Source: Planctomycetaceae bacterium
Lineage (GTDB): Bacteria > Planctomycetota > Planctomycetia > Planctomycetales > Planctomycetaceae
Direction: 5' to 3'
DNA: 64,000 nucleotides
NCBI GenBank assembly: GCA_034439795.1
Contig: JAWXBB010000103.1
Location: 7,423-71,422 of the forward strand
The notes beneath the pieces were generated by a model. That model made no database searches and was not told where the DNA came from. It worked only from the letters and a program-made list of their open reading frames with translations. Of the stretch, positions 2,848 to 39,266 are shown piece by piece (position 1 is the stretch's first letter; each line of letters begins with the position of its first letter). The translations under genes were made by a program, and so were the position numbers.

Positions 2848-4077
2848 TCACCGCGCAGCGCTCGGCCCCGCGTGCTCCCCGCGCGCGAACTGACGCAGAT
2901 CCTGTCCCTTGATGACGGCGGCGATCAAGTCCGGCAGGCGGTTTGGCGTGCAGCCGAAGCACGGCATCCCCAACCCGGCCAGCTTCTCCGCCAGGCGCTC
3001 GTTGTGCGACGGCTGCCCCTGGTCCGAAATCGCCAGCAGACCGACCGCCTTCAGCCCCCCTTCGAGCAGCGATTCCATTTTCTTGACGAACCGGCTTTCG
3101 TTGGGGCTCGTGTCGTGCAGATCGGCCAGCAGGACGTACAGCGTTTTCGCCGGCGTGTGCATGAACCGCTCGCAATAGCAGGTCGCCTTCCAGTAGTCCT
3201 CGGCCCCGCCCAGTTGGATGCCGAACAGCAGGTCGACCGGATCGGAGCAGTGTTCGGTCAGGTCGACCACGTCCTCGTGATTGAACGCGACGACGTGGGT
3301 TTCCACGGAGGGGAGGCTGGCGAGAATCGCCCCCATGATGCCGCCGTAAATCAGCGACGTCGCCATCGACCCCGACTGGTCCATGGCGATGATGATGTTC
3401 CACTGGTTCTGGCGCTGTTGCCGGCCGAAGAACGAGATGCGTTCGGGGACGATCGTCCGCACTTCGAGATTGTAGTTTTTCAGATTGCGGCGGATCGTCG
3501 TGGGCCAGTCGAGATTCGGCAGGCTGCGAAACGGGCTGTGACGATTGCGATTGAGGGCCCCCCGAATCGCCTGCGCGAACTGCGACTCCAGCCGCTTGCG
3601 GACCTCCTCGACGGCCCGGCGGACGACGTCGCGCGCCGCGTCCTTGGCCTTTTCGGGCACCAGATTCTTCAGCGTCAGCACCATGCTCGCCAGATCGACG
3701 GACGGCTCGAGCTGCGCCAACAGCTCCGGCTCGAACAGCAGTTGCTTGATCCCCTTGCGTTCGATCGCGTCCTTCTGCAGCAAAACCACGATGTCCTTCG
3801 GGAAGAACTCGCGGATCTGGCCGAGCCACCGCGCGACGCGCGGAAACGTCCGCCCCTTCACCGCCCCGTGCGGACCGGTCTTGGGCGACTCCCATTCCTC
3901 GCGCGTGATTTCATCGTCGCTCGCGTTGTAAATCGCCTCCAACGCCTCGTCCATTTGCAGGTCGTCGCCGGTCAGCGCGCAGCCCCCGGAGTGATACGCC
4001 GACAGGCTCTCCTCGGATTCCTTGCCCAGAATCAGCCGCCACCGCCGCAGGGATTCGGGATCGACGGATGTGCTCAT
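2848..4077 (-). CDS. vWA domain protein, CoxE-like (YehP-like)
   Basis: 409-aa ORF. MIDAS motif IIIAMDQSGSM (DxSxS). N-terminal RRWRLILGKE helix region as seen in CoxE-type vWA proteins. Lies 21 nt downstream of the DUF5682-like gene in the same operon. Confidence 0.8.
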   Translation of the reverse strand: MSTSVDPESLRRWRLILGKESEESLSAYHSGGCALTGDDLQMDEALEAIYNASDDEITREEWESPKTGPHGAVKGRTFPRVARWLGQIREFFPKDIVVLLQKDAIERKGIKQLLFEPELLAQLEPSVDLASMVLTLKNLVPEKAKDAARDVVRRAVEEVRKRLESQFAQAIRGALNRNRHSPFRSLPNLDWPTTIRRNLKNYNLEVRTIVPERISFFGRQQRQNQWNIIIAMDQSGSMATSLIYGGIMGAILASLPSVETHVVAFNHEDVVDLTEHCSDPVDLLFGIQLGGAEDYWKATCYCERFMHTPAKTLYVLLADLHDTSPNESRFVKKMESLLEGGLKAVGLLAISDQGQPSHNERLAEKLAGLGMPCFGCTPNRLPDLIAAVIKGQDLRQFARGEHAGPSAAR

Positions 4078-4098
4078 GTTGTGAATTCCACAAGGATG

Positions 4099-6420
4099 CT
4101 ACAGGTCGCCAAAATCGAACTCGTTCAAGTCGGCAAGCGTCTGTTCTTCCTGCTCGGTCAGCGGTTGCTCGATCAATTCGCTGGCTGCGTCGGCGTGGAC
4201 GCCCCAGTGCTCGCCGAGATTCTCGGCGATGTGCCGCTTCTCGCGCGGACTGAAGCTGCCGAACGCGCGCCGCAGAAACACCAGCGCCCGGCGGAACTGG
4301 TCGTCGTCGAGCGCGGCGACGTAGTCGGCCAACTGCACCCACAGCGTTTGCCGGGTGAGCAATGCGTAGCGGTTGCGCCGCGATAATCCCTCGAACCAGC
4401 CGGCGCCGAGGTCGGCGGGAATGCCCGGCGACAACCGGCGGGACACCTCGCGGGCCAGCGCATCGTTGGCCATCAGGCCGCGCTCCAGCAGGATCGCGCA
4501 GGCGTAGCCGGACAGCAGCGGGTTGCGGTCATCGGCGTCGGCGAGCCGTTGCAGCCGGTCGATCCACAGCGATTCCTCGACGCGGTCCGCATACTCCAGC
4601 GCGACCTGATTGAGCTCGTCCATCGCCGCCAGGATCGCCCTGGCGGCCTCGTTGTCGCAGGTTGCCGCCCCGTGCAGCGCCAGCGAACCCTGCACGAACA
4701 GTTCCTCAACGAGCGGCAGCAGCGGGGATGGATCGAACTTGCGGACATCGCCGTAACGGATGATCTGCCCCAGCGCGCGAGCCGCATGCGCGATGGCGGT
4801 GAACTCCGACGTGCCTGCCGACAGTTCCTGCAACCGCTGTCGGGCCGCTTCCATCGACTTCATCAGGCCGCACTGGCAGGCGTCGCGGATCACGTCGGCC
4901 GCCTGCGCGATCGTCGGGCAGGCCTCGAGCGTTGTCTGGAATTGAAAGCCGACGGCCAGCTCGACGGTCTCGCCGAGCAGCACCGCCTCGATCAGTTGGA
5001 TCTCGCTCTCCGGGGACCATTGCAGATGCCACTTCTCCGCCCAGTTGGTCGATTGCTGCGCGGTCCGCTGCGCCGTCGCGAAGCCGACGCCGAGCACGCG
5101 CAGCCGATGAAAGAACGACGACCGGCTCAAATCCAAAAACGCCGCCTCCGTCGATTTCGCCTGACGGTTCTCGCGCAGGTCCAGCGTCAGTTCCTGCTTG
5201 ACGGTGGTCTTGTATTTCTCCAGCTTCAGCCGCGCGAGTTCGCGCTCGAAGTCGACCTGGATCGAAGTCCGGCTGACCCCTTTGGGCAACTCGCCGATCG
5301 CCGTGCCGACGTCGACCCGGGCCAGGGCATCCCGAACGGTCGACAATTCGCCGTGACCGACGAGCGTCACCGCGGCGTCGCGCAGATCCTTCAGCGTCGG
5401 GGCCAATCCGTCCTTGAGAGCCGACAGCGTGTTCGCGAGCCGCACCCCTTCGATCACCTCGGCCGTCGAGCGGTGGGTGCCGGATTCCCGCAGGTGCCGG
5501 ACCACGAGCGACAGGTACCGCGACGGCAACTCGGCGAGGTCGTTCCGTTCGAGCGACTCCCACAGCAACTCAAAGTACGCCGGCGCGTGATTGCCCGCCC
5601 CGTAGCCCGATTGCGAAGAGAGTTTGAAGTACGAATACGGCATCAGTGTCAACTGGCTGGCCCGCCGACGCAGCGATGCGAGTTCGTCGTCGGTCATCGG
5701 CAGGTGGTCGCCGTTCAACACCGACGCATGAAACGCGCCGACCACTGCGACGATCTTTTCGGGCTTGTATCCCGCGGCGACGGCCTCGGCGATCCGCCGC
5801 CGCATGTAGGCCTCGCGGACCAGACTCTCCGCCCGCCGGCGGACGGAGTCCCGTTCCAGATCGCGCAACGACTGTCCGAACTCGAACGCGGCGAGGCGAT
5901 AGCTGTCGTCGCTCAGGTTGTGCTCGAAGTGCCGCTCCCAGTACGTCTCGTAATCCGCTTCGCCCGCCTGTTGCGCGTACTGATCGTGAATCGACGGCCC
6001 GCGTTCGGGGGGTGTAAGATTCTCCGGCGATTCGGTCGGAGGATCGAGTTGGTTGCCGGCCTGTTCGAGCAGTTCCGCCTCGATGTCCTGCAACGCGAGG
6101 AAGATGTCGGACGGCAGGTCGATGAACATCACCCGGACGTCGTGTTCGGCCGCCCATTTGAGCGCCTGATACTCCGGGCTGTAACGCGCCAGCGGATAGA
6201 CCAGCGTCCGGACCGGCAGCGAATCGGTGTAGGCCAGAATCGCGATCGGCGGCTTCGTCCCCGGCCGCGTGATGTCCGGGATCAACGCATCCGCATCGGC
6301 GAGCCCCTCAATCAACACCAACTCCGGCCGCACGCGGTCGAGATAACGCCGCAGATGCCACGCCCCCGTCGGCGACAGATGCCGCACCCCGAAGACGTTG
6401 ATTGGTCCGGAGCCATTCAT
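4099..6420 (-). CDS. Large alpha-helical protein, DUF5682-like (YehM-like)
   Basis: ORF 4099..6504 trimmed to ATG 6420 (MNGSGPINVFGVRHLSPTGAWHL). This start forms an ATGA overlap with the stop of the upstream AAA+ gene. The approx 770-aa size and N-terminal FGVRHLSP motif recall DUF5682/YehM. Family assignment is from memory, not from a search. Confidence 0.65.
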   Translation of the reverse strand: MNGSGPINVFGVRHLSPTGAWHLRRYLDRVRPELVLIEGLADADALIPDITRPGTKPPIAILAYTDSLPVRTLVYPLARYSPEYQALKWAAEHDVRVMFIDLPSDIFLALQDIEAELLEQAGNQLDPPTESPENLTPPERGPSIHDQYAQQAGEADYETYWERHFEHNLSDDSYRLAAFEFGQSLRDLERDSVRRRAESLVREAYMRRRIAEAVAAGYKPEKIVAVVGAFHASVLNGDHLPMTDDELASLRRRASQLTLMPYSYFKLSSQSGYGAGNHAPAYFELLWESLERNDLAELPSRYLSLVVRHLRESGTHRSTAEVIEGVRLANTLSALKDGLAPTLKDLRDAAVTLVGHGELSTVRDALARVDVGTAIGELPKGVSRTSIQVDFERELARLKLEKYKTTVKQELTLDLRENRQAKSTEAAFLDLSRSSFFHRLRVLGVGFATAQRTAQQSTNWAEKWHLQWSPESEIQLIEAVLLGETVELAVGFQFQTTLEACPTIAQAADVIRDACQCGLMKSMEAARQRLQELSAGTSEFTAIAHAARALGQIIRYGDVRKFDPSPLLPLVEELFVQGSLALHGAATCDNEAARAILAAMDELNQVALEYADRVEESLWIDRLQRLADADDRNPLLSGYACAILLERGLMANDALAREVSRRLSPGIPADLGAGWFEGLSRRNRYALLTRQTLWVQLADYVAALDDDQFRRALVFLRRAFGSFSPREKRHIAENLGEHWGVHADAASELIEQPLTEQEEQTLADLNEFDFGDL

Positions 6421-7553
6421 TCGTTGTGCTCGGAACACGCCGTGAACAGCGGCCGCCATTCCGCGCCGCGCTTCTTGAGGACGTTTGACAGATACTCCTG
6501 CCACGCGACGCGGTCCTTTTCCTCGTCCTTCACGACCGACCCCTGCAGGCCGGCGGCCAGATCGTGCGGTGTCACGTCGCCGGTGCCGAAGCTCCCGGCG
6601 AGCGCCATGCTGTTGGCGAGGACGGAGATCGCCTCCGCGGTCGACAGCACGCCGCTGGGGGATTTCAGCTTGGCTTTGCCGTCGAGCGTCTGGCCGGTCC
6701 GCAGTTCGCGGAAGATCGTGACGACTTTCTCGATCGCCTCATCGGCGGGGACTTTCGCCTTCAGCTCCAGATGCAGGGCGAGTTCGCGGACCCGGCGGCG
6801 GACGATGTCGATCTCGCTTTCGATGGTCGCCGGCGTCGGCAGCACGACCACGTTGAACCGCCGCTTGAGCGCCGCCGACATGTCGTTCACCCCGCGGTCT
6901 CTGGTGTTCGCCGTGGCGATGATCGAGAACCCCTTCTGGGCGGGCACCTCCGTCAACAGCTCGGGAACGGAGAGCCGCTTCTCCGAGAGGAGTGAAATCA
7001 TCGCGTCCTGCACTTCCGACGCACACCGCGTGATTTCCTCGAACCGGGCCAGCGATCCGCTCTCCATCGCCCGGAAGATCGGACTGCGGATCAGCGCCTC
7101 GGGGCTGGGGCCGTGGGCGATCAGCATCGCGTAATTCCACGTGTAGCGAACCTGCTCTTCCGTCGTGCCGGCGGTTCCCTGCACGACTTTCGTGGAATCG
7201 CCGTTGATCGCGGCCGCGAGGTGCTCGGACAGCCACGATTTCGCGGTGCCCGGCTCGCCGATGAGCAACAGGGCACGGTCGGTGACCAGCGTCGAAACGG
7301 CGATCTCCACCAGCCGCTGATGCCCGATGTATTTGGGTGTGATGGCCGTGCCGCCGACCGAACCGCCGCAGATGTAGGTCAGCACGGCCCGGGGCGACAT
7401 CCGCCAGCCGGGGGGCTTGTCGTGTTTGTCGGCCTGAATGAGCGCTTCCAGCTCCTTCGCATAGAACACTTCCGCCGGCACGCGCAGCATCCCGCCGACA
7501 TCGTTGGTCTCGGAGGGGGCGGCATCGGCCATCGAGTCTTTCTTCTTGCTCAT
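6417..7553 (-). CDS. MoxR/AAA_5-type AAA+ ATPase (YehL-like)
   Basis: 378-aa ORF. Walker A LLLIGEPGTAKS. Walker B region SLARFEEITR. Sensor-1 IIATANTRD. Arginine region ALKRRFNVV. Confidence 0.85.
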   Translation of the reverse strand: MSKKKDSMADAAPSETNDVGGMLRVPAEVFYAKELEALIQADKHDKPPGWRMSPRAVLTYICGGSVGGTAITPKYIGHQRLVEIAVSTLVTDRALLLIGEPGTAKSWLSEHLAAAINGDSTKVVQGTAGTTEEQVRYTWNYAMLIAHGPSPEALIRSPIFRAMESGSLARFEEITRCASEVQDAMISLLSEKRLSVPELLTEVPAQKGFSIIATANTRDRGVNDMSAALKRRFNVVVLPTPATIESEIDIVRRRVRELALHLELKAKVPADEAIEKVVTIFRELRTGQTLDGKAKLKSPSGVLSTAEAISVLANSMALAGSFGTGDVTPHDLAAGLQGSVVKDEEKDRVAWQEYLSNVLKKRGAEWRPLFTACSEHNE

Positions 7554-7658
7554 GCGGTTGCATTCTGCTGAGGGAATCGGGCATTAAACGGAATGCTTAC
7601 AGCGTGCATCGCGATTCAGGATTGAGGGTGCGGAGGCATCGCCATTATTCCCGGATTG

Positions 7659-7857
7659 CAGCCGCGGAGCGGCGACAGATCGTAGCCCCAGGCGTGAGCC
7701 TGGGGAAACATCGTCGTGGTGTTGTTCAGCCCCGAAGGGGCGACAGAAGCTCGATTGCGCGACGCATCTCTGTCGCCCCTCCGGGGCTGGCGTGTTCCCC
7801 GGCGACTGGTCCCCAGGCTCACGCCTGGGGCTACGATCTGACGCCCCGCTGGGGCTG
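7659..7857. repeat. Nested-palindrome element, family C, copy 1 (inside the SWIM-HEAT-MoxR-vWA operon)
   Basis: Outer arms GCGACAGATCGTAGCCCCAGGCGTGAGCCTGGGG / CCCCAGGCTCACGCCTGGGGCTACGATCTGACGCC. Inner arms AGCCCCGAAGGGGCGACAGAA / CTGTCGCCCCTCCGGGGCT. Confidence 0.85.
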
Positions 7858-7930
7858 AAGACCAATACCGACTGAAGCTTCATGGTGGATCCCACACAGA
7901 ATCGTGACGCACACGCATACCGCTACCCCG

Positions 7931-9748
7931 TCAGACATCCGGCTTGTTCTTCAGCGCGAGCAGGGATTCCATCAGCGAATCCACCATCTTCTCGGGCAGA
8001 CTCGGCAACAACGCTTCGAGCTGCGTCGCGGAGGACTTCGGCAGGTCCGGAATCATCCGACCGATCCAGTAGCCGACCGAACCGTGATATGGCGAGGCGG
8101 CGAACTGCTTGAGCAACTCCAGCACCCCCTTCGTCGCCTCCGGGTGGCCGATGCGGACCATCGTGTCCAGCACCCGCTGCGAATTGTAATCCGCGGACTT
8201 CTTGAGACTCGCGGCGAACTGCTCCGGCAGAAACCGGTTGGTCGCCGGATGGTTCGGCCGCGCCAACTGCTGCACGAGGTCCAAATCGCCAGTCGCGACG
8301 GCGGCGTCCAGCCAGCGCGGATCGAGTTCCGGCAGGTCGCCCTGTTCGCGACCAAAATACGCGACGCGGCTGGTCCGCCAGGCGAGACTCGGATCGGCGA
8401 CCTGGTCCGCCAGTCCGTGACGGATCGCCTCCAGCCGGCCGAATGCGGTCGCGGTCTTCTTCGATTTCTTGTCGGGCTGGTCGAGCAGGCTCGGCGAAAA
8501 CAGGTCGTACAGCCGGCCCGGCGACACCGTGCGGCGGGCCGCGGCAAACGCGCACGACAGCATCGGGCCGGTGAGCGACTCGTGCGCCGCGATCAGCTTC
8601 TCGCGCGTCTTGGGCGAACCGTTCGCCATCAGATAGGCGACCAGCTCGTTCACGTCGGCGCCGCTCGGTTCGGACTTGATCGCCGCCAGATCGCTCGCGC
8701 GATCGAAGCCCTTCAGCAGCCAGGCTTCGGTCCCCGCATCGTCGCGGCCGACGAGGCCCCCCAGCCAGTGTTGCAGCCGCGTAACCGCGGTGCCTTGCTC
8801 CGTCTTGTCCTTCAGCTTGAGCAGTTTGGCGAGTTGCCGGTCGGCTTCAGTCAACAGGAATTTCAGCAGGGCCGGATTGCGGCTCGTCCGCAGCCGGTCC
8901 ACGATCAAGGCCAGATCCGCACCGCCCGCCGCCTTCTGCACGGCTTCCACGGCGACGGCGGCGTCGAGCTTGGTCAGCGCTCCCAATGCGGCGGCGCGGA
9001 CGTCCTTGGCTTTCGCTTTCGATTGCTCCAAGAGATAGGCGAGATCTTCGTCCGAGTCTCCCAGACACTCGATGGCGACGACCTTGAGTTCCTTCGATCC
9101 GTCGTCGAGCGTCTGCGCAATCAGCGCGCGCGTCCCCTGCGGATCGAGCTGATGCATGAGCCGCAAACGCAGCAGATGACCGGCCTTCCCGTTCTGATCA
9201 AAACTGCGGCGCAGCTCGGGCAGGATCGCTTTGCCGTACAACGGCAGCACTCGCTCCACGACGAAGTCGCCGATTTCCGGATACGGATCGTCGAGCGCCT
9301 CGAGCGCGGGCTTGACCAGCCGCAGGTCGGCGAACGCGCCGCGCTCAAAGGCGTCGCGAATCAACTCTAGTCGTCCGGAACCAGTCGTCGACAGCGCTTC
9401 GAGCAGCGGTTTCAGCAATCGGGCGCTGGCCTGCGTCTGCCGGGCGCCCAGGTCGGTCGTTTCGATCGTCAGCAATTCGCCCGCGAGGCCGGTCTCCCCC
9501 TGCGTATAGAGGATGGCGTTGACCAGCCCCGCCAGTTCCAGCAGCGCGACCGGGGCCGTCTTCTCATTGCTGTCCACAACGGCCTGCGCGGACTGCGCCA
9601 CTTTTGCGAATACTGGAGCCTTCTCGCCGGCCTTTTCCAACGGCGCGATCAGTTTCTTCAGACGAAAATCGCCCCCCGACACCCCGCTGCCGGCAATCGC
9701 CAGTCGCCGCAGTTCGTCGGACACCTGAGTGAGGATCGCGATGCTCAT
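7931..9748 (-). CDS. HEAT/ARM-like repeat protein (possible counterpart of the DUF4132/YehI-type partner)
   Basis: ORF 7931..9907 trimmed to ATG 9748 (MSIAILTQVSDELRRL), 12 nt after the stop of the upstream gene. All-helical repeats such as VVAIECLGDSDEDLAYLLE and DVRAAALGALTKLD resemble HEAT units. The DUF4132 link is unverified. Confidence 0.65.
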   Translation of the reverse strand: MSIAILTQVSDELRRLAIAGSGVSGGDFRLKKLIAPLEKAGEKAPVFAKVAQSAQAVVDSNEKTAPVALLELAGLVNAILYTQGETGLAGELLTIETTDLGARQTQASARLLKPLLEALSTTGSGRLELIRDAFERGAFADLRLVKPALEALDDPYPEIGDFVVERVLPLYGKAILPELRRSFDQNGKAGHLLRLRLMHQLDPQGTRALIAQTLDDGSKELKVVAIECLGDSDEDLAYLLEQSKAKAKDVRAAALGALTKLDAAVAVEAVQKAAGGADLALIVDRLRTSRNPALLKFLLTEADRQLAKLLKLKDKTEQGTAVTRLQHWLGGLVGRDDAGTEAWLLKGFDRASDLAAIKSEPSGADVNELVAYLMANGSPKTREKLIAAHESLTGPMLSCAFAAARRTVSPGRLYDLFSPSLLDQPDKKSKKTATAFGRLEAIRHGLADQVADPSLAWRTSRVAYFGREQGDLPELDPRWLDAAVATGDLDLVQQLARPNHPATNRFLPEQFAASLKKSADYNSQRVLDTMVRIGHPEATKGVLELLKQFAASPYHGSVGYWIGRMIPDLPKSSATQLEALLPSLPEKMVDSLMESLLALKNKPDV

Positions 9749-9759
9749 GGGGAGATTTC

Positions 9760-10815
9760 CTACATCGTCAGCCGCACCACCGCCGACTCTGTCACGAGGC
9801 TCAGCGGCTTGATCTGCAACTTGCGCGTGTCCAGATCGTGGCGAAACCGCGCGACCAGCGTCTGGTTCTCGAACAGGCCGGGAGACAACAGCGGCAACAG
9901 ATGACAACTGGCCGGCTCATCGGTCATGCCGCGGTCGGTCATTGTCAGCCGGTTTCCCGTCGCGTCCTCGACGACGAACGTGCCGTCGATCTGGCCGATG
10001 CGTCGAAAGCTCAGCGCATAGATCGGTTGCTTGTCCGACAACGGTCCCTTGAGGTTGGTTTTGACCTCTTTTACCACCGCGGCGAAATCGCTGTGAGCGT
10101 GCGTGCGGGCGCGCTGCAGATCGGATGGCTCCAGCGGACGCGGCGTCATCGCCTCCCACCGGACCCTGGGGTTGACGTCGCCGGGATAGACGCACAGTTC
10201 CGCCACCGTCGCGACCTGGAAGAAGCTGTCGTCGCTTTTGATGTACTTCGCCGCCTTGTACGGCCGGAAGTTCTGCGAAAGCTGGATGCGGCCCGTGTTC
10301 AGATTCAGCCAGACGCCGGTGTCGACGTATTCCTGCCGGGCGATGTCGTTGTGCGAATTGAACGCGAGCTGGATCAGTTCGACGTCGGTCTGCACGAGAC
10401 CCACCGCTTTCAACTCGGAGAGTTGCCACGCATGACCGAGCCACGCGGCGATGGCGGTGTCGGTTTCCGGTTTGAGTTCGGGGTCGTCGCCGCGCCGTTG
10501 CAGATAGGCCCGGCCCTGTTTCACGAGCGAATGCAGCCGGCCGAGCTGATCGAGCGCCTCACTGTAGACCGCCTCGCGCTGGCTCGCCGGCACGGAGGAG
10601 TCGTAGGCGCTGTCCTCATTGGCGAACAACTTCGTGAACCGATGCAACGTCGCCTGCGCGCCAGGCAGGTAGGCGTTGCCGAGTTGCTTGGCCTTCTCCT
10701 CGATTTCCTTCGCGGTTTTGGCGTTCATGTTCCCGATGCCGATGCGCACCAGGTCGAGCGTCAACTTCTCCAGGAGGTCGATCCCTTTCCAGCTGCGCCC
10801 GAATTTTTTTGGCAA
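9760..10815 (-). CDS. C-terminal two-thirds of a SWIM zinc-finger protein (YehQ-like); frame-shifted relative to the N-terminal part
   Basis: 351-aa ORF that begins only at a TTG inside an A7 run. The protein-like sequence begins right at KKFGRSWKGIDLLEKLTLDLV. Deleting one A from the run joins it in frame to ORF 10616..11218. Confidence 0.6.
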   Translation of the reverse strand: MPKKFGRSWKGIDLLEKLTLDLVRIGIGNMNAKTAKEIEEKAKQLGNAYLPGAQATLHRFTKLFANEDSAYDSSVPASQREAVYSEALDQLGRLHSLVKQGRAYLQRRGDDPELKPETDTAIAAWLGHAWQLSELKAVGLVQTDVELIQLAFNSHNDIARQEYVDTGVWLNLNTGRIQLSQNFRPYKAAKYIKSDDSFFQVATVAELCVYPGDVNPRVRWEAMTPRPLEPSDLQRARTHAHSDFAAVVKEVKTNLKGPLSDKQPIYALSFRRIGQIDGTFVVEDATGNRLTMTDRGMTDEPASCHLLPLLSPGLFENQTLVARFRHDLDTRKLQIKPLSLVTESAVVRLTM

Positions 10816-11218
10816 GCGCCGCTTTATCGACGGTCTTCGGCTTGGCCGCGTCCTCCTTTTTCTTCTCCGTTCGTTCGGACAGCTTCTCGCGTTTCTCCGC
10901 CAAATCCGCAGGGACGTCGGCCACCTGGAACGACGGCCGCTTCTGCACGAAGGCGTACATCAGCCCCAGGCAGTGCTTGCACGGAAACTGCCGGCTCGGA
11001 CAGGTGCAGCGATGCGTCGGCTGATCCGCGCGGGCGAAATCGCACGAGCAGCGATACGGCTCCTGGCCCGACCCCTGACATTCGCCGAACAGCAATGCTT
11101 CGCCGTCGTCGGTGTGCAGCTTGAGGAACTTCCCCTTCACGACCAGGCCGCGACCATTCTTGATCGCGTCGGCGTTCGGCGCGGAGGCGTCCACGTACGC
11201 TTCGTCGATGGAGATCAT
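10616..11218 (-). CDS. N-terminal SWIM zinc-finger part of the same gene (true coding portion approx 10805..11218)
   Basis: SWIM CxCxnCxH signature: CSCDF...HRCTCPSRQFPCKHCLGLMYAF. After ...KAALAKK the translation turns into Arg/His/Gly-rich junk (IRAQLERDRPPGEVDARPGAHRHREHERQNREG). This indicates the reading frame is lost at the A7 run (plus-strand T7 at 10804..10810). Confidence 0.6.
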   Translation of the reverse strand: MISIDEAYVDASAPNADAIKNGRGLVVKGKFLKLHTDDGEALLFGECQGSGQEPYRCSCDFARADQPTHRCTCPSRQFPCKHCLGLMYAFVQKRPSFQVADVPADLAEKREKLSERTEKKKEDAAKPKTVDKAALAKKIRAQLERDRPPGEVDARPGAHRHREHERQNREGNRGEGQATRQRLPAWRAGDVASVHEVVRQ

Positions 11219-11378: not shown

Positions 11379-11415
11379 CCGGTCCCCTCGCCCCCGTCTT
11401 CGGGGGAGAGGGGGC
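11379..11415 (-). repeat. REP hairpin unit (hairpin core only)
   Basis: CCGGTCCCCTCGCCCCCGTCTTCGGGGGAGAGGGGGCC in the divergent intergenic region between the SWIM gene and the kinase. Confidence 0.8.
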
Positions 11416-11577: not shown

Positions 11578-14319
11578 ATGCCGCTGACGCTCGAACAGTT
11601 CGCGAGGCAACTGACCGACAGCGGCCTGTTCGCGGCCGACGAGGTCGGCGCGCTCCGGGCGGCGTCCCGTGCCGCCGATGCCGAGCACTTCGCCCGCGAG
11701 CTCGTGAAACAGAAGCGGCTGACGGCGTTCCAGGCCCAGCAGGTCTACGCGGGCAAGGCGAAGTCGCTGGTGCTGGGCAACTACGTCATCCTCGACAAGC
11801 TCGGCCAGGGGGGCATGGGGATGGTGCTCAAGGCCGAGCACCGGCGGATGAAGCGGATCGTCGCCCTGAAGGTGCTGTCCCCCAACGTCACCAAGACGAA
11901 GGACGTCGTCGCCCGGTTTCATCGCGAAGTCCAGGCCGCGGCCAAACTCGAACACCCGAACATCGTGTCGGCCTACGACGCCGACGAAGCCAACGGCACG
12001 CACTTCTTCGTGATGCAGTACGTCGCGGGGGAGGATCTCTCCTCGCTGGTCAAAACGAAGGGGCCGCTGCCGGTCGAGTCGGCGGTGAGCTGCGTCCTGC
12101 AGGCCGCACGCGGGCTGGAGTTCGCCCACAGGCAGGGGGTGATTCATCGCGACATCAAGCCGGCGAACCTGTTGCTGGACGGCAAGGGGGTGGTGAAGAT
12201 CCTCGACATGGGCCTGGCGCGCATCGAGGGGGACACCGGCGCGCTGGCCGAGTTGACCAACACCGGCGCGGTGATGGGAACCGTCGACTACATGGCCCCC
12301 GAACAGGCCCGCAACACCAAGACGGCCGACGCCCGCAGCGACATCTATTCCCTCGGCATCTCGCTGTGGTATCTGCTCGTCGCCAGGCCGGCGTACAACG
12401 GCCAGACGCTGACCGAACGGTTGCTGGCCCATCAGAGCGATCCGATTCCGTCGCTGTGCGCCGCGCGAAGCGACGTGCCCGCCGCGTTGGACGCCGTCTT
12501 TCAGAAACTCGTCGCAAAGCGGCCGGCGGACCGGTATCAGACGATGACGGCGGTCATCGACGCACTGGACGGCGCCTTGCACGGGGACGTCGTAGCCGCT
12601 GTGCCGAGTCTGGCCGTACAGCCCTCGGACGACAGCAAGTTCAACGAATTCCTGGCGGGGCTGGCAAACACCGACGCCGGTTCGCGCGGGACCGCCCCGC
12701 ACAAGACCGCGGTGGCGACGGGCATTGTCACCGACGTCACCGAAGAGTTTCAGCACACGCAGTCGTCCACGGCCCCCGAAGCCGCGACCGATCCCCTGGG
12801 ACTGACGCCGATCGCGCGCCGGCGCACTGCCGCCCGCCGGCCTGGGCCGCGGCACGAATGGTGGGCCGACCGGCGCGTGCAAATCGGCGGCGCTGCGGTC
12901 GTGCTTGTGGCCTCTTTGGCGCTGATGATTGCCTCGGGCAAGCGGGAGGCCGCCGCACCCCGAACGGCGGCGTTGCCGGCCGGATCGCAATACGCCCTCG
13001 AGTTCGATGGAACCGCGGCGCACGTCCAGATCCCCACATTGAAGCTCGCCGGCGGGCCGTTCACGTCGGAAGCCTGGATCGAGCCGGGACCGCTCAGCAT
13101 GGGGTGTTATCTCGGCGCTTACGACCAGGGCCATAGCGCATCGCTGTGGGGCAGTTCCGGCATCAATGGCTTCACGGCCACCACACCCGCCGGCACGCGC
13201 GTCGGCAAGCAGTCCGACCGTCTGGACCTGGGACGCTGGATGCATGTCGCCGGCGTGTTCGATGGACGAGCGGCGGCGTACTTTGTGGATGGCAAGCTCA
13301 TCCACCAATCGACCGGTTTCTCGGAGCATGAGCCGGCCAATCTCCAGGGGGCGTGGTTGGGAGGCCTTCCTGATATCGGAATGTGGCGCGGCCGTCTGCG
13401 GGCCGTGCGCGTCTCGCAATCGGTGCGCTATTCGGCCGATTTTACGCCCCCCCAGCAGTTCACGGACGACGATCAGACCTTGGCGCTCTATCTCATGGAT
13501 GAAGGTCAAGGCACAACGCTCAATGATCGATCCGGAAACGAGCATCACGGCACGATCGTCCAGGCCGAATGGGTGATTGACCGGTCCGGCGGGCCGGTCA
13601 CAACGCCCGCGTCCGACCCCGAATCCTCCGATCGTCCGAGTCCGCAGGAATCGTCGCCAGCGCTGCCACCGGCCGACGATTATGCCCTGCAGTTCGACGG
13701 CGACGACATCGTGGTTTCCCCCTTTGAGTTCGACTTCGCGCAGCCGTTCACCTTCGAAGCGACCGCCCGGCTCGACGCACTCCCCGTCAAGAATCAGATG
13801 AGTTGCCTGGCTGTGCAGGGGGGTGGAGGCCAGGTCATCCTGCGCGCCTTGCCGTCCGGCGAGTGGAACATCGTCGGGACCGGCGGGATCTGGTATGGCA
13901 ATGGTCCGATCCGCGTCGGCGAACAGACACATCTCGCCGTCGTTTATACGGGAGAGAAGTTCCTGCTGTTCCTCGACGGCCAGTTGATCTCCCCTCGAAA
14001 GTCGGAACCCTCGCGGGAAAGCCGCGTCAACACCCCGCGAATCATGACGCTGGCTCTCGGTGGGGGGGGATTCGCCGGCCTGATCGATGAAGTCCGCATC
14101 TCGCGCGTCGCGCGCTACGACCGCGATTTCACACCGGCAAAGCGCTTCAATCCCGATCCGCAAACGTTCCTCTTGTATCATTTGGACGAAGGCCAGGGAG
14201 ACATCGTCAAGGACTCTTCGGGCAACGATCATCACGGCAAAATCGTCGGCGCGACGTGGGTGTCCCCGGACGACACAGCGCCCGCAACACGATCTACATC
14301 GGGCCAGCCACTTCCCTGA
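11578..14319 (+). CDS. Hanks-type Ser/Thr protein kinase with C-terminal tandem LamG/concanavalin-A-like domains
   Basis: Kinase motifs: GQGGMGMV, VALKVL, HRDIKPANLL, DMGLA, APE. One hydrophobic segment (VQIGGAAVVLVASLALMIA) is followed by two jelly-roll-like repeats (WMHVAGVFDGRAAAYFVDGKLI; THLAVVYTGEKFLLFLDGQLI; VRISRVARY). Confidence 0.85.
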   Translation: MPLTLEQFARQLTDSGLFAADEVGALRAASRAADAEHFARELVKQKRLTAFQAQQVYAGKAKSLVLGNYVILDKLGQGGMGMVLKAEHRRMKRIVALKVLSPNVTKTKDVVARFHREVQAAAKLEHPNIVSAYDADEANGTHFFVMQYVAGEDLSSLVKTKGPLPVESAVSCVLQAARGLEFAHRQGVIHRDIKPANLLLDGKGVVKILDMGLARIEGDTGALAELTNTGAVMGTVDYMAPEQARNTKTADARSDIYSLGISLWYLLVARPAYNGQTLTERLLAHQSDPIPSLCAARSDVPAALDAVFQKLVAKRPADRYQTMTAVIDALDGALHGDVVAAVPSLAVQPSDDSKFNEFLAGLANTDAGSRGTAPHKTAVATGIVTDVTEEFQHTQSSTAPEAATDPLGLTPIARRRTAARRPGPRHEWWADRRVQIGGAAVVLVASLALMIASGKREAAAPRTAALPAGSQYALEFDGTAAHVQIPTLKLAGGPFTSEAWIEPGPLSMGCYLGAYDQGHSASLWGSSGINGFTATTPAGTRVGKQSDRLDLGRWMHVAGVFDGRAAAYFVDGKLIHQSTGFSEHEPANLQGAWLGGLPDIGMWRGRLRAVRVSQSVRYSADFTPPQQFTDDDQTLALYLMDEGQGTTLNDRSGNEHHGTIVQAEWVIDRSGGPVTTPASDPESSDRPSPQESSPALPPADDYALQFDGDDIVVSPFEFDFAQPFTFEATARLDALPVKNQMSCLAVQGGGGQVILRALPSGEWNIVGTGGIWYGNGPIRVGEQTHLAVVYTGEKFLLFLDGQLISPRKSEPSRESRVNTPRIMTLALGGGGFAGLIDEVRISRVARYDRDFTPAKRFNPDPQTFLLYHLDEGQGDIVKDSSGNDHHGKIVGATWVSPDDTAPATRSTSGQPLP

Positions 14320-15829: not shown

Positions 15830-16050
15830 TTACGCCGAAGGCGTTGCCTATCAAAGCCCAGGGTCGCGAGTCTGCGAGCGCACCCTGGGTGGCAATCGAT
15901 GATGAACCCATACCCTGAAAGGGTTTCATCAAGGTTTGACACCGCCGATGATGCGACCCCTTCAGGGTCGATTCGACGCGGACGCCACTTTCCCAGGGTG
16001 CGCTCACAGACTCGCGACCCTGGGCTGTGTGATCGAACGCCTTCGGCGTA
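15830..16050 (+). repeat. Family A MITE-like element, copy 2
   Basis: Same termini and internal arms as copy 1, same orientation. Lies between the decarboxylase and DUF1501 genes. Confidence 0.9.
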
Positions 16051-30148: not shown

Positions 30149-30207
30149 GCGAAGCGATCGGCCCCCTCACCCTCACCCTCTCCCCCGAAGACGGGGGCGA
30201 GGGGACC
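30149..30207 (+). repeat. REP hairpin unit
   Basis: GCGAAGCGATCGGCCCCCTCACCCTCACCCTCTCCCCCGAAGACGGGGGCGAGGGGACC. Confidence 0.9.
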
Positions 30208-39070: not shown

Positions 39071-39266
39071 AGCCCCAGCGGGGCGGCAGATCGTAGCCCC
39101 AGGCGTGAGCCTGGGGAACAGCGGCCCGCGTTCGTGGAAGCCCCGGAGGGGCGACAGAAATCGAACGGCCTCCGACATTCTGTCGCCCCTTCGGGGCTTA
39201 ATGTCGCGCAGAATCCTTCACCCCAGGCTGACGCCTGGGGCTACGATCTGCCGCCCCTTCGGGGCT
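39071..39266. repeat. Nested-palindrome element, family C, copy 2
   Basis: Same outer and inner arms as 7659..7857 (GGCAGATCGTAGCCCCAGGCGTGAGCCTGGGG ... CCCCAGGCTGACGCCTGGGGCTACGATCTGCC). Lies between murJ and the kinase gene. Confidence 0.85.

Follow-up and report, generated by a model that had tools for sequence, protein, structure and literature searches.

A widespread, functionally unexplained MoxR-vWA operon family and its imperfect copy in a planctomycete genome

What could be the function of an operon in which a MoxR-type AAA+ ATPase and a von Willebrand factor A (vWA) protein are combined with a DUF5682 protein, a SWIM zinc-finger protein and a HEAT-repeat protein, and does such an operon qualify as an undescribed system? 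This question is raised by a stretch of 64,000 nucleotides (nt) from a metagenome-assembled genome (MAG) of a Planctomycetaceae bacterium (hereinafter, the window), in which five co-oriented genes, all of those reported in the original prediction made from the letters of the sequence, are present on the minus strand at positions 2848-11218. We found that this locus is one imperfect copy of a widespread, catalogued, functionally unexplained five-gene operon family that, as tentatively proposed below, might encode an ATP-driven machine controlling a putative hydrolase.

To call the operon an undescribed system overstates its novelty: the protein families and the YehL-vWA gene neighborhood are already catalogued, and it is the function alone that is missing. 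The complementary expectation, that no characterized pathway accounts for this gene set, was borne out by all sources consulted, namely PADLOC, NCBIfam, the literature and solved structures. PADLOC-DB v2 contained no relevant match for the AAA+, DUF5682, vWA and HEAT proteins, and the N-terminus of the SWIM protein weakly matched the PADLOC candidate PDC-S62 (4e-5); NCBIfam gave no informative match for the operon proteins. A literature search on DUF5682, yehLMPQ, DUF4132, DUF5691 and the MoxR+SWIM combination found no functional study, and the term 'DUF5682' was not found in any of the papers searched. Sequence and profile searches of the PDB detected no solved relative of the DUF5682, vWA or SWIM proteins.

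Conservation and composition of the operon

One genome per species was scanned with an alignment of the AAA+ protein, which yielded at least 593 loci; the best 80 of these, from Planctomycetota, Verrucomicrobiota, Bacillota (Paenibacillus, Cohnella and Clostridia), Bacteroidota and Myxococcota, were analyzed by searching the five window proteins against the six-frame open reading frames (ORFs) of each locus. The order SWIM-HEAT-AAA+-DUF5682-vWA is intact on a single strand in 60 of the 80 loci, and most of the remaining ones are either truncated at the end of a contig or disrupted by frameshifts; the co-conservation of the five genes, which the original prediction anticipated, thus extends over five or more phyla. 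The median intergenic distances along the operon in the related loci are 28, 4, 2 and 1 nt, and the vWA gene lies two genes downstream of the AAA+ gene in the window as well as in 70 of the 80 loci. No sixth conserved gene was detected in the 10-kb flanks of the 80 loci, the largest flanking family being present in 10 of them, all from Paenibacillus. Therefore, the five genes comprise a self-contained module that is embedded in variable contexts. The high protein identity between phyla (66-85% for the AAA+ protein and 48-60% for the DUF5682 protein) indicates that the operon is under strong purifying selection; between Planctomycetota and Paenibacillus, the AAA+ proteins are about 70% identical. 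The operon also occurs on 41 plasmid or chromid records.

The AAA+ protein of the window (378 amino acids (aa); positions 6417-7553, on the minus strand like all genes of the operon) matches AAA_5 (PF07728) with an E value of 2.3e-37 over profile positions 2-139 of 139. Its similarity to YehL of Escherichia coli (42% identity, E value of 5e-87) covers 354 of the 378 residues, with no change between the two proteins in either the Walker A motif GEPGTAKS (7236-7259) or the RFEEIT Walker B region. By virtue of this full-length homology to the protein that gave the subfamily its name, the window protein is provisionally assigned to the YehL subfamily of MoxR ATPases, one of seven MoxR subfamilies, for which no function was given in the defining survey (PMC3893208). 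A sequence search of the PDB pointed to the AAA modules of midasin as the nearest solved relatives (4e-9), the match to bpMoxR was marginal (27.9 bits, with 51 residues aligned at the P-loop), and weak matches to GvpN and MadB-type MoxR ATPases were observed as well. The eukaryotic midasin (Rea1), which acts on pre-60S ribosomes, resembles the window operon in combining an AAA_5 motor with a vWA element that contains a metal ion-dependent adhesion site (MIDAS). However, the similarity does not extend beyond the generic AAA_5 core, and midasin is a single polypeptide (4700-4900 residues in the solved chains), whereas the motor and the vWA protein of the window are separate small proteins.

The vWA protein (409 aa; 2848-4077) is a member of the VWA_CoxE family (PF05762; 3e-32, 112.2 bits compared to the cutoff of 26.4, profile positions 5-218 of 222) and is 33% identical to E. 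coli YehP (8e-66). The MIDAS identified in the original prediction is only in part canonical: the DxSxS signature (DQSGS, 3367-3381) and the distal D319 are invariant, but the MIDAS threonine is replaced, with GGAED in place of GGGTD, both in the window and in the Aquisphaera locus (L011), and an acidic residue might substitute for this threonine. The GGAED variant marks a planctomycete subclade (approximately residues 290-320 in the window, positions 3100-3200; 13483-14697 in L011) in which DLYEGGN is also changed to DLHDTSPNE. The proteins from four other loci (L003, L007, L021 and L062) are probable members of this subclade, as they match the window protein at about 1e-200 compared to about 1e-125 for other loci.

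Among the two remaining partners, the SWIM protein contains a zinc finger (PF04434) that scores above the cutoff (E value of 2e-4, 21.2 bits compared to 19.6), and the four metal-ligand positions of its CxCxnCxH motif (C71, C73, C80 and H82; CTCPSRQFPCKH, 10973-11008) do not vary among 19 homologs that represent several phyla. Pfam recovers four of the predicted families, VWA_CoxE, DUF5682, AAA_5 and SWIM. The HEAT label of the fifth protein (605 aa; 7931-9748) holds at the level of the family but not for the window protein itself, which remains below the Pfam cutoff (HEAT_2, E value of 0.0018): HEAT_2 matches were found in 18 of its 21 homologs, and the profile of the family matches the alphaRep HEAT designs at 3e-34. 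Neither the window protein nor any of the 21 homologs has a Pfam match to DUF4132. Because one of the homologs matches DUF5691 (1.8e-5), the comparison suggests that the HEAT protein is a DUF5691-type partner; in a Rhizobium operon, the corresponding slot is occupied by a DUF5691 gene.

The likening of the cluster to the E. coli genes yehQ, I, L, M and P turned out to be valid for the core and not for the SWIM and HEAT genes. The AAA+, DUF5682 and vWA proteins are homologous to YehL, YehM and YehP, are encoded in the same order and are tightly coupled in both organisms; the protein sizes, which had been expected to match, are similar but not the same (362, 759 and 378 aa in E. coli compared to 378, 773 and 409 aa in the window). 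In both cases, the core is accompanied by a SWIM protein and a large helical-repeat protein, but the similarity of the window SWIM protein to YehQ is confined to the zinc-finger motif (BLASTP E value of 0.018; profile comparison with hhalign, P = 0.54), the proteins being 485 and 614 aa long, respectively. The 605-aa HEAT/DUF5691-like protein shows no detectable homology to the 1210-aa DUF4132 protein YehI by either BLASTP or hhalign. To judge by these comparisons, the relationship of the SWIM and HEAT proteins to YehQ and YehI is one of analogy only. The arrangement differs as well: in E. coli (locus L001, K-12 positions 2204596-2210944), yehI and yehH are located upstream of yehL-yehM-yehP-yehQ, giving the order DUF4132, AAA+, DUF5682, vWA, SWIM, with the SWIM gene downstream, whereas in the window this gene is upstream of the core. 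The window-type proteins from different phyla are much closer to one another than to the E. coli set. The yehLMPQ genes are single-copy and chromosomal in 5353 of the 5426 complete E. coli genomes (98.7%) and hence belong to the core rather than the strain-variable part of the genome; their nucleotide identity among the complete genomes is 90-100%, with 934 genomes at 90-95%.

Further variants include Bacillus mycoides, with the E. coli order (DUF4132, AAA+, DUF5682, VWA, SWIM), Rhizobium (a hypothetical protein, DUF5691, AAA+, DUF5682, VWA) and a longer operon in Streptomyces. Across E. coli, B. mycoides, Rhizobium and Streptomyces, the AAA+-DUF5682-vWA triad is constant and the SWIM and helical-repeat partners vary. 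A Pirellulaceae copy (locus L007) lacks the SWIM/HEAT pair, and directly upstream of its triad is a gene for the Wadjet protein JetD (8244-9785, plus strand; JetD_C, 1.5e-35), a single, anecdotal link to defense. Stand-alone YehL-like ATPases, 66-77% identical to the window protein, are present in certain Bacteroidota and in one MAG labeled 'delta proteobacterium' (loci L025, L052, L059 and L073; AAA+ gene at about 10001-11100 or equivalent). Their neighbors are unrelated (BrkB-like, GH109, phospholipase A1), and no DUF5682, vWA, SWIM or HEAT gene is present within 10 kb.

The DUF5682 protein and the TraB/TIKI superfamily

The DUF5682 protein (773 aa; 4099-6420) matches its family profile (PF18934) over positions 1-696 of 727 (E value of 3e-149, 499 bits compared to the cutoff of 26) and E. 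coli YehM over the full length (24% identity, 2e-24). When 1.84 billion representative proteins were searched with a family profile, 4013 clusters at 50% identity were recovered, 1451 of them with E values of 1e-30 or below. In the AlphaFold2 model built from 86 sequences (predicted local distance difference test (pLDDT) score of 82.8), an N-terminal alpha/beta region of about 262 residues is followed by a helical solenoid. The C-terminus of the protein is a conserved acidic tail (...ELNDFDF). The comparison of the full-length model with the PDB yielded non-significant alpha-solenoid matches only, and after this uninformative search the N-terminal domain (residues 1-262; 5635-6420), a putative TraB/TIKI-like His/Glu hydrolase, was modeled alone, giving a pLDDT of 87.7 and strands that alternate with helices. 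Across 62 diverse members of the family that are 27-59% identical, 18 residues are invariant (R13, H14, P32, E38, P58, P76, S81, E83, D101, E166, R202, M206, G228, H231, A275, P280, G376 and G678), 14 of which map to the N-terminal domain. The conserved motifs follow in the order FGxRH, LIEG, SPE, DLP, RExxM and GAxH.

The original prediction mentioned a resemblance of the N-terminus to the TraB/TIKI fold as pure speculation; this link now draws support from Pfam, Foldseek and hhalign, all of it below significance. The order of the DUF5682 motifs appears to match the TraB/TIKI pattern, with two GxxH histidines (H14 and H231) and two glutamates (E38 and E83). More generally, GxxH, E, R-E/N-x-x-M/W and G-A-x-H follow in an order that the N-terminal domain has in common with the superfamily that encompasses TIKI, TraB, PrgY, GumN, ChaN and erythromycin esterases; in the TIKI superfamily, a 2His/2Glu site hydrolyzes an ester or peptide bond (PMC6254334). 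In Pfam searches, TraB_PrgY_gumN or ChaN (Cofac_haem_bdg) was the top match other than DUF5682 itself, below threshold, for four of five N-terminal domains, and the two were the most common recurrent non-self families among the 62 members (6, compared to 2 for Spore_III_AB). The top three Foldseek matches of the alpha/beta model in the PDB are the same chain of the Tetrahymena complex IV, 383-384 residues long. From this length, rather than from the chain labels, we infer that the chain is COXTT5, a 385-aa 'TraB family protein'. Bcr135, a member of the Ere/TIKI group, ranked seventh (E value of 1.8). With hhalign, DUF5682 scored 23.75 against the TraB family protein YbaP of E. coli, where none of 30 shuffles exceeded 17.8 (the global mode was uninformative for this pair), and 40.7 against a nine-sequence TraB/GumN profile, where the highest score among 25 column shuffles was 20.7 (P = 6.6e-5). 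The latter alignment covers the RExxM...GAxH half of the domain, pairing REAxMR...VVCGAxH with RNxxW...VGAxH.

Several observations detract from the assignment to this superfamily. The Pfam matches to TraB_PrgY_gumN and Cofac_haem_bdg, at E values of 0.005 to 0.18, are below the cutoffs, so that there is no significant match to the clan; the best Foldseek match (probability 0.82, E value of 0.035, template modeling (TM) score of 0.35) falls short of conventional significance; and in the N-terminal half, where the GxxH motif and the glutamate align in register, the score of 14 does not exceed those of the shuffles. Each of the signals for the TraB/TIKI relationship is weak and sub-significant when taken individually. 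The domain is also highly divergent, its halves are separated by a helical insert (104-215, about 110 residues), and it is fused to a 500-residue solenoid within a MoxR-vWA operon, a context that is not described for the superfamily. Nevertheless, taking together the alpha/beta model, the likely TraB family identity of the best structural match, the recurrence of the weak Pfam matches and the profile comparisons, a divergent TraB/TIKI-like hydrolase is the best reading of the N-terminal domain, with odds of roughly two in three.

Anatomy of the window copy

The dense packing of the operon described in the original prediction was found at the junction of the AAA+ and DUF5682 genes, which overlap in ATGA (6417-6420), and in the 21-nt spacing between the DUF5682 and vWA genes; the distance from the SWIM stop to the HEAT start is 11 nt, not 12 nt, and the spacing typical of operons breaks down between the HEAT and AAA+ genes. 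Also in place are the GEPGTAKS, DQSGSM and CTCPSRQFPCKH motifs. Plus-strand ORFs that overlie the operon genes (e.g. 4549-7134) were dismissed as high-GC antisense artifacts because the minus-strand products have thousands of homologs. A scan for sigma-70 promoters and terminators found none above the shuffled background, and the sigma-70 model may not apply to Planctomycetes.

The SWIM region was described as one gene in the original prediction, which missed the damage to it. These 1459 nt (9760-11218) are spread over two frames (10616-11218 and 9760-10815) and contain no intact coding sequence. The joined protein has 1864 homologs, and the best of these, 70-82% identical to it, are exactly 485 aa long and uninterrupted. 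Across the junction, the homologs read ...ALAKKIRAQLEGIDLLEKL... (in a shorter excerpt, ...AKKIRAQLEGIDLLEKL...), and the removal of one A from GGAAAGGG (10786-10788, the extra A in CTG GAA A GGG) gives ALAKKIRAQLEGIDLL, which is identical to the homologs in three loci (L002, L011 and L017). Thus, the ORF is split by a single extra A. Two candidate sites of programmed frameshifting were considered. The A7 run (10804-10810) was rejected because, to judge by the homologs, the frame changes 18 nt further downstream, at GGAAAGGG. Programmed +1 frameshifting at GAA-AGG-G is very unlikely given that every examined homolog (10 proteins, and 3 loci compared at the DNA level) is in frame there. At the site itself (10783-10791, CTG GAA AGG GAT), an AGG codon directly follows GAA, and AGG in this position resembles the 'hungry codon' sites of +1 frameshifting; E. 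coli yehP has been reported as a candidate for +1 ribosomal frameshifting (PMC2790909). We regard the resemblance of the SWIM site to such sites as a coincidence, considering that the examined homologs lack the extra base.

The second anomaly is the spacer between the HEAT and AAA+ genes (7554-7930), which is 377 nt long compared to the median of 4 nt in 71 related loci. With the median intergenic distances elsewhere being short, this gap is atypical. It contains two inverted copies of Acido-Lenti-1 (RF01687), at 7660-7705 (minus strand) and 7811-7856 (plus strand), which score 51.4 and 45.7 bits compared to the Rfam gathering score of 37. The hairpin core of this element is also paired at 39097-39116 and 39221-39240, about 31 kb from the operon, and there is a weak third match at 15831-15889; the inverted pairs behave like a small palindromic mobile element. 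The Acido-Lenti-1 family was described from Acidobacteria and Lentisphaerae, and the host in this case is a planctomycete. Another repeat, the GC-rich 27-nt hairpin CTCTCCCCCGAAGACGGGGGCGAGGGG, which resembles repetitive extragenic palindromic (REP) elements, is present in the window in five copies, with none expected (124-150, 2638-2664, 2785-2811, 11384-11410 and 30178-30204). These copies bracket both ends of the cluster, with one upstream (11384-11410, minus strand) and two downstream (2638-2664 and 2785-2811). The repeat translates as 'LSPEDGGEG'.

Given the one-base frameshift in the SWIM gene and the repeat element that splits the operon, the window copy may be impaired. The stronger proposition, that it is a decaying relic no longer functional in this genome, finds support in these same two features, that is, a gene for a protein of 485 aa that is intact elsewhere and an insertion where the homologs have about 4 nt, as well as in the REP-like repeats at both ends of the cluster. 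It nevertheless appears doubtful. The other four genes are full length, with the family-conserved residues intact wherever checked, and an intergenic insertion need not block transcription. Furthermore, the indel may reflect either an assembly error or a real inactivation, the former because the window comes from a MAG; the SWIM, DUF5682 and vWA genes are likewise split into two frames in two other MAG copies (loci L008 and L010), which makes indel errors in MAGs a realistic explanation of such splits.

Outside the operon, a 913-aa protein is encoded divergently at 11578-14319 (plus strand). Its N-terminus is Ser/Thr kinase-like, and it contains two repeated C-terminal modules that by eye are LamG- or lectin-like.

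A proposed motor that gates a hydrolase, and the competing explanations

Several MoxR-vWA pairs in which the vWA protein is an adaptor of the motor are known, namely RavA-ViaA, CbbQ-CbbO, NorQ-NorD and CoxD-CoxE, and in CoxDEF, the motor and the adaptor are additionally paired with a third, putative hydrolase-like protein. As in these systems, the MoxR gene of the window adjoins that of a vWA/MIDAS protein, and this vWA protein belongs to the Pfam family of CoxE. Unlike RavA-ViaA, CbbQ-CbbO, NorQ-NorD and CoxD-CoxE-CoxF, however, the window operon includes a MoxR ATPase of another subfamily (YehL) and SWIM, HEAT and DUF5682 components that are absent from all of them, and it has no client enzyme nearby. 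MoxR-vWA pairs act as motor and adaptor on dedicated clients, and a chaperone-like remodeling activity has been proposed for the family (PMC3893208).

The reading that we favor, with a probability of about 45%, is that the operon encodes a self-contained MoxR-vWA remodeling motor that gates the DUF5682 hydrolase, with the SWIM and HEAT proteins as a recognition scaffold. Under this scenario, the AAA+ protein would form an ATP-driven ring, and the vWA protein would, like its counterparts in other MoxR-vWA pairs, serve as the adaptor that couples the ring to DUF5682. The latter would be the working end, a TraB/TIKI-type hydrolase domain fused to a helical solenoid, and the SWIM and HEAT proteins, whose genes are always neighbors and lie immediately upstream, would choose the target as a recognition or scaffold pair. 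ATP-dependent remodeling would then switch the hydrolase, which could be protease- or esterase-like, on or off, or else load it onto a target encoded away from the operon. A more specific version, in which DUF5682/YehM is an unrecognized TraB/TIKI hydrolase that is permanently wired to a YehL motor, a CoxE-type vWA protein and a SWIM/HEAT receptor pair, is put forward with somewhat greater reserve. Apart from the weakness of the individual hydrolase signals, three points count against the proposed machine: the contacts among the five proteins are deduced from gene order, the MIDAS of the vWA protein is incomplete, and the YehL-type motor may not be dedicated to the SWIM/HEAT/DUF5682/vWA partner set because near-identical YehL-like ATPases stand alone in some Bacteroidota.

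An alternative, by analogy with described systems, is an NTP-dependent conflict or anti-phage system in which the SWIM and HEAT proteins would sense the invader, the MoxR-vWA pair would transduce the signal and DUF5682 would be the toxic hydrolase effector. Such a role would fit the self-contained module in variable neighborhoods, its patchy distribution across phyla, which implies horizontal transfer, and its presence on the 41 plasmid or chromid records; the JetD gene that adjoins the operon in one related locus and the weak similarity of the SWIM N-terminus to PDC-S62 point in the same direction. In addition, vWA-MoxR ternary systems have been linked to conflict (PMC10910872), and those that include VMAP resemble the window operon in that a MoxR ATPase and a vWA protein are encoded in one operon with a third large partner; the marginal bpMoxR match of the AAA+ protein is a further point of resemblance. 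In this case, however, DUF5682 takes the place of the third partner, the proteins are highly conserved, and E. coli carries its version in the core genome; no PADLOC model matches the corresponding window proteins, although no search aimed at VMAP or effector-associated domains was made. We consider a conflict function unlikely: the AAA+, DUF5682, vWA and HEAT proteins match no PADLOC model, the identity of the AAA+ proteins between Planctomycetota and Paenibacillus is far above that usual for arms-race genes, the E. coli version is nearly always a single chromosomal copy, and DUF5682 was found on one dubious phage record only.

Still less probable is a machine for the maturation of a cofactor or metal center, of the CoxD-CoxE-CoxF or chelatase type, in which the AAA+/vWA pair would insert a cofactor into a client enzyme encoded elsewhere and DUF5682 would be a non-catalytic, ChaN-like carrier of a ligand, haem or metal. 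This possibility is compatible with the CoxE family membership of the vWA protein, the weak matches of the AAA+ protein to GvpN and MadB-type ATPases and those of 4 of the 62 DUF5682 members to the haem-binding ChaN (best E value of 0.0055), the housekeeping role that core-genome status in E. coli would fit and the fact that, to our knowledge, every characterized MoxR-vWA pair takes part in the maturation of a metalloenzyme or a large complex, but the operon, in contrast to the cox, nor, cbb, bch and cob clusters, has no conserved client enzyme beside it in the 80 loci, there is no similarity to CobN, BchH or CoxF (for the class I chelatases BchI/D/H and CobS/T/N, DUF5682 has no CobN or BchH match in Pfam or PDB sequences), the SWIM and HEAT partners have no counterpart in CoxDEF or chelatase systems, and the invariant His/Glu/Arg set of DUF5682 looks catalytic rather than merely ligand-binding.

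The present analysis adds to the catalogued families statistics on the operon across phyla, the distinction between core and variable partners, a corrected anatomy of the locus and the hypothesis that DUF5682/YehM is a hydrolase. Few bacterial AAA+ systems are as widespread as MoxR-vWA pairs; nevertheless, no client or role is known for the YehL subfamily, despite its presence in E. coli K-12. The conserved operon, the constant core triad and the probable His/Glu hydrolase site turn a locus of 'unknown function' into a testable hypothesis, for which E. coli or a Paenibacillus isolate is a more practical model than the interrupted MAG copy. If the more specific version of the favored reading, with DUF5682/YehM as a TraB/TIKI hydrolase permanently wired to the YehL motor, is correct, the operon would represent a novel type of ATP-gated machine, protease- or esterase-like in its activity, that is present in five or more phyla and belongs to the core genome of E. 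coli, and would offer the first entry point into the mechanism of a MoxR subfamily that has lacked a function ever since its definition.

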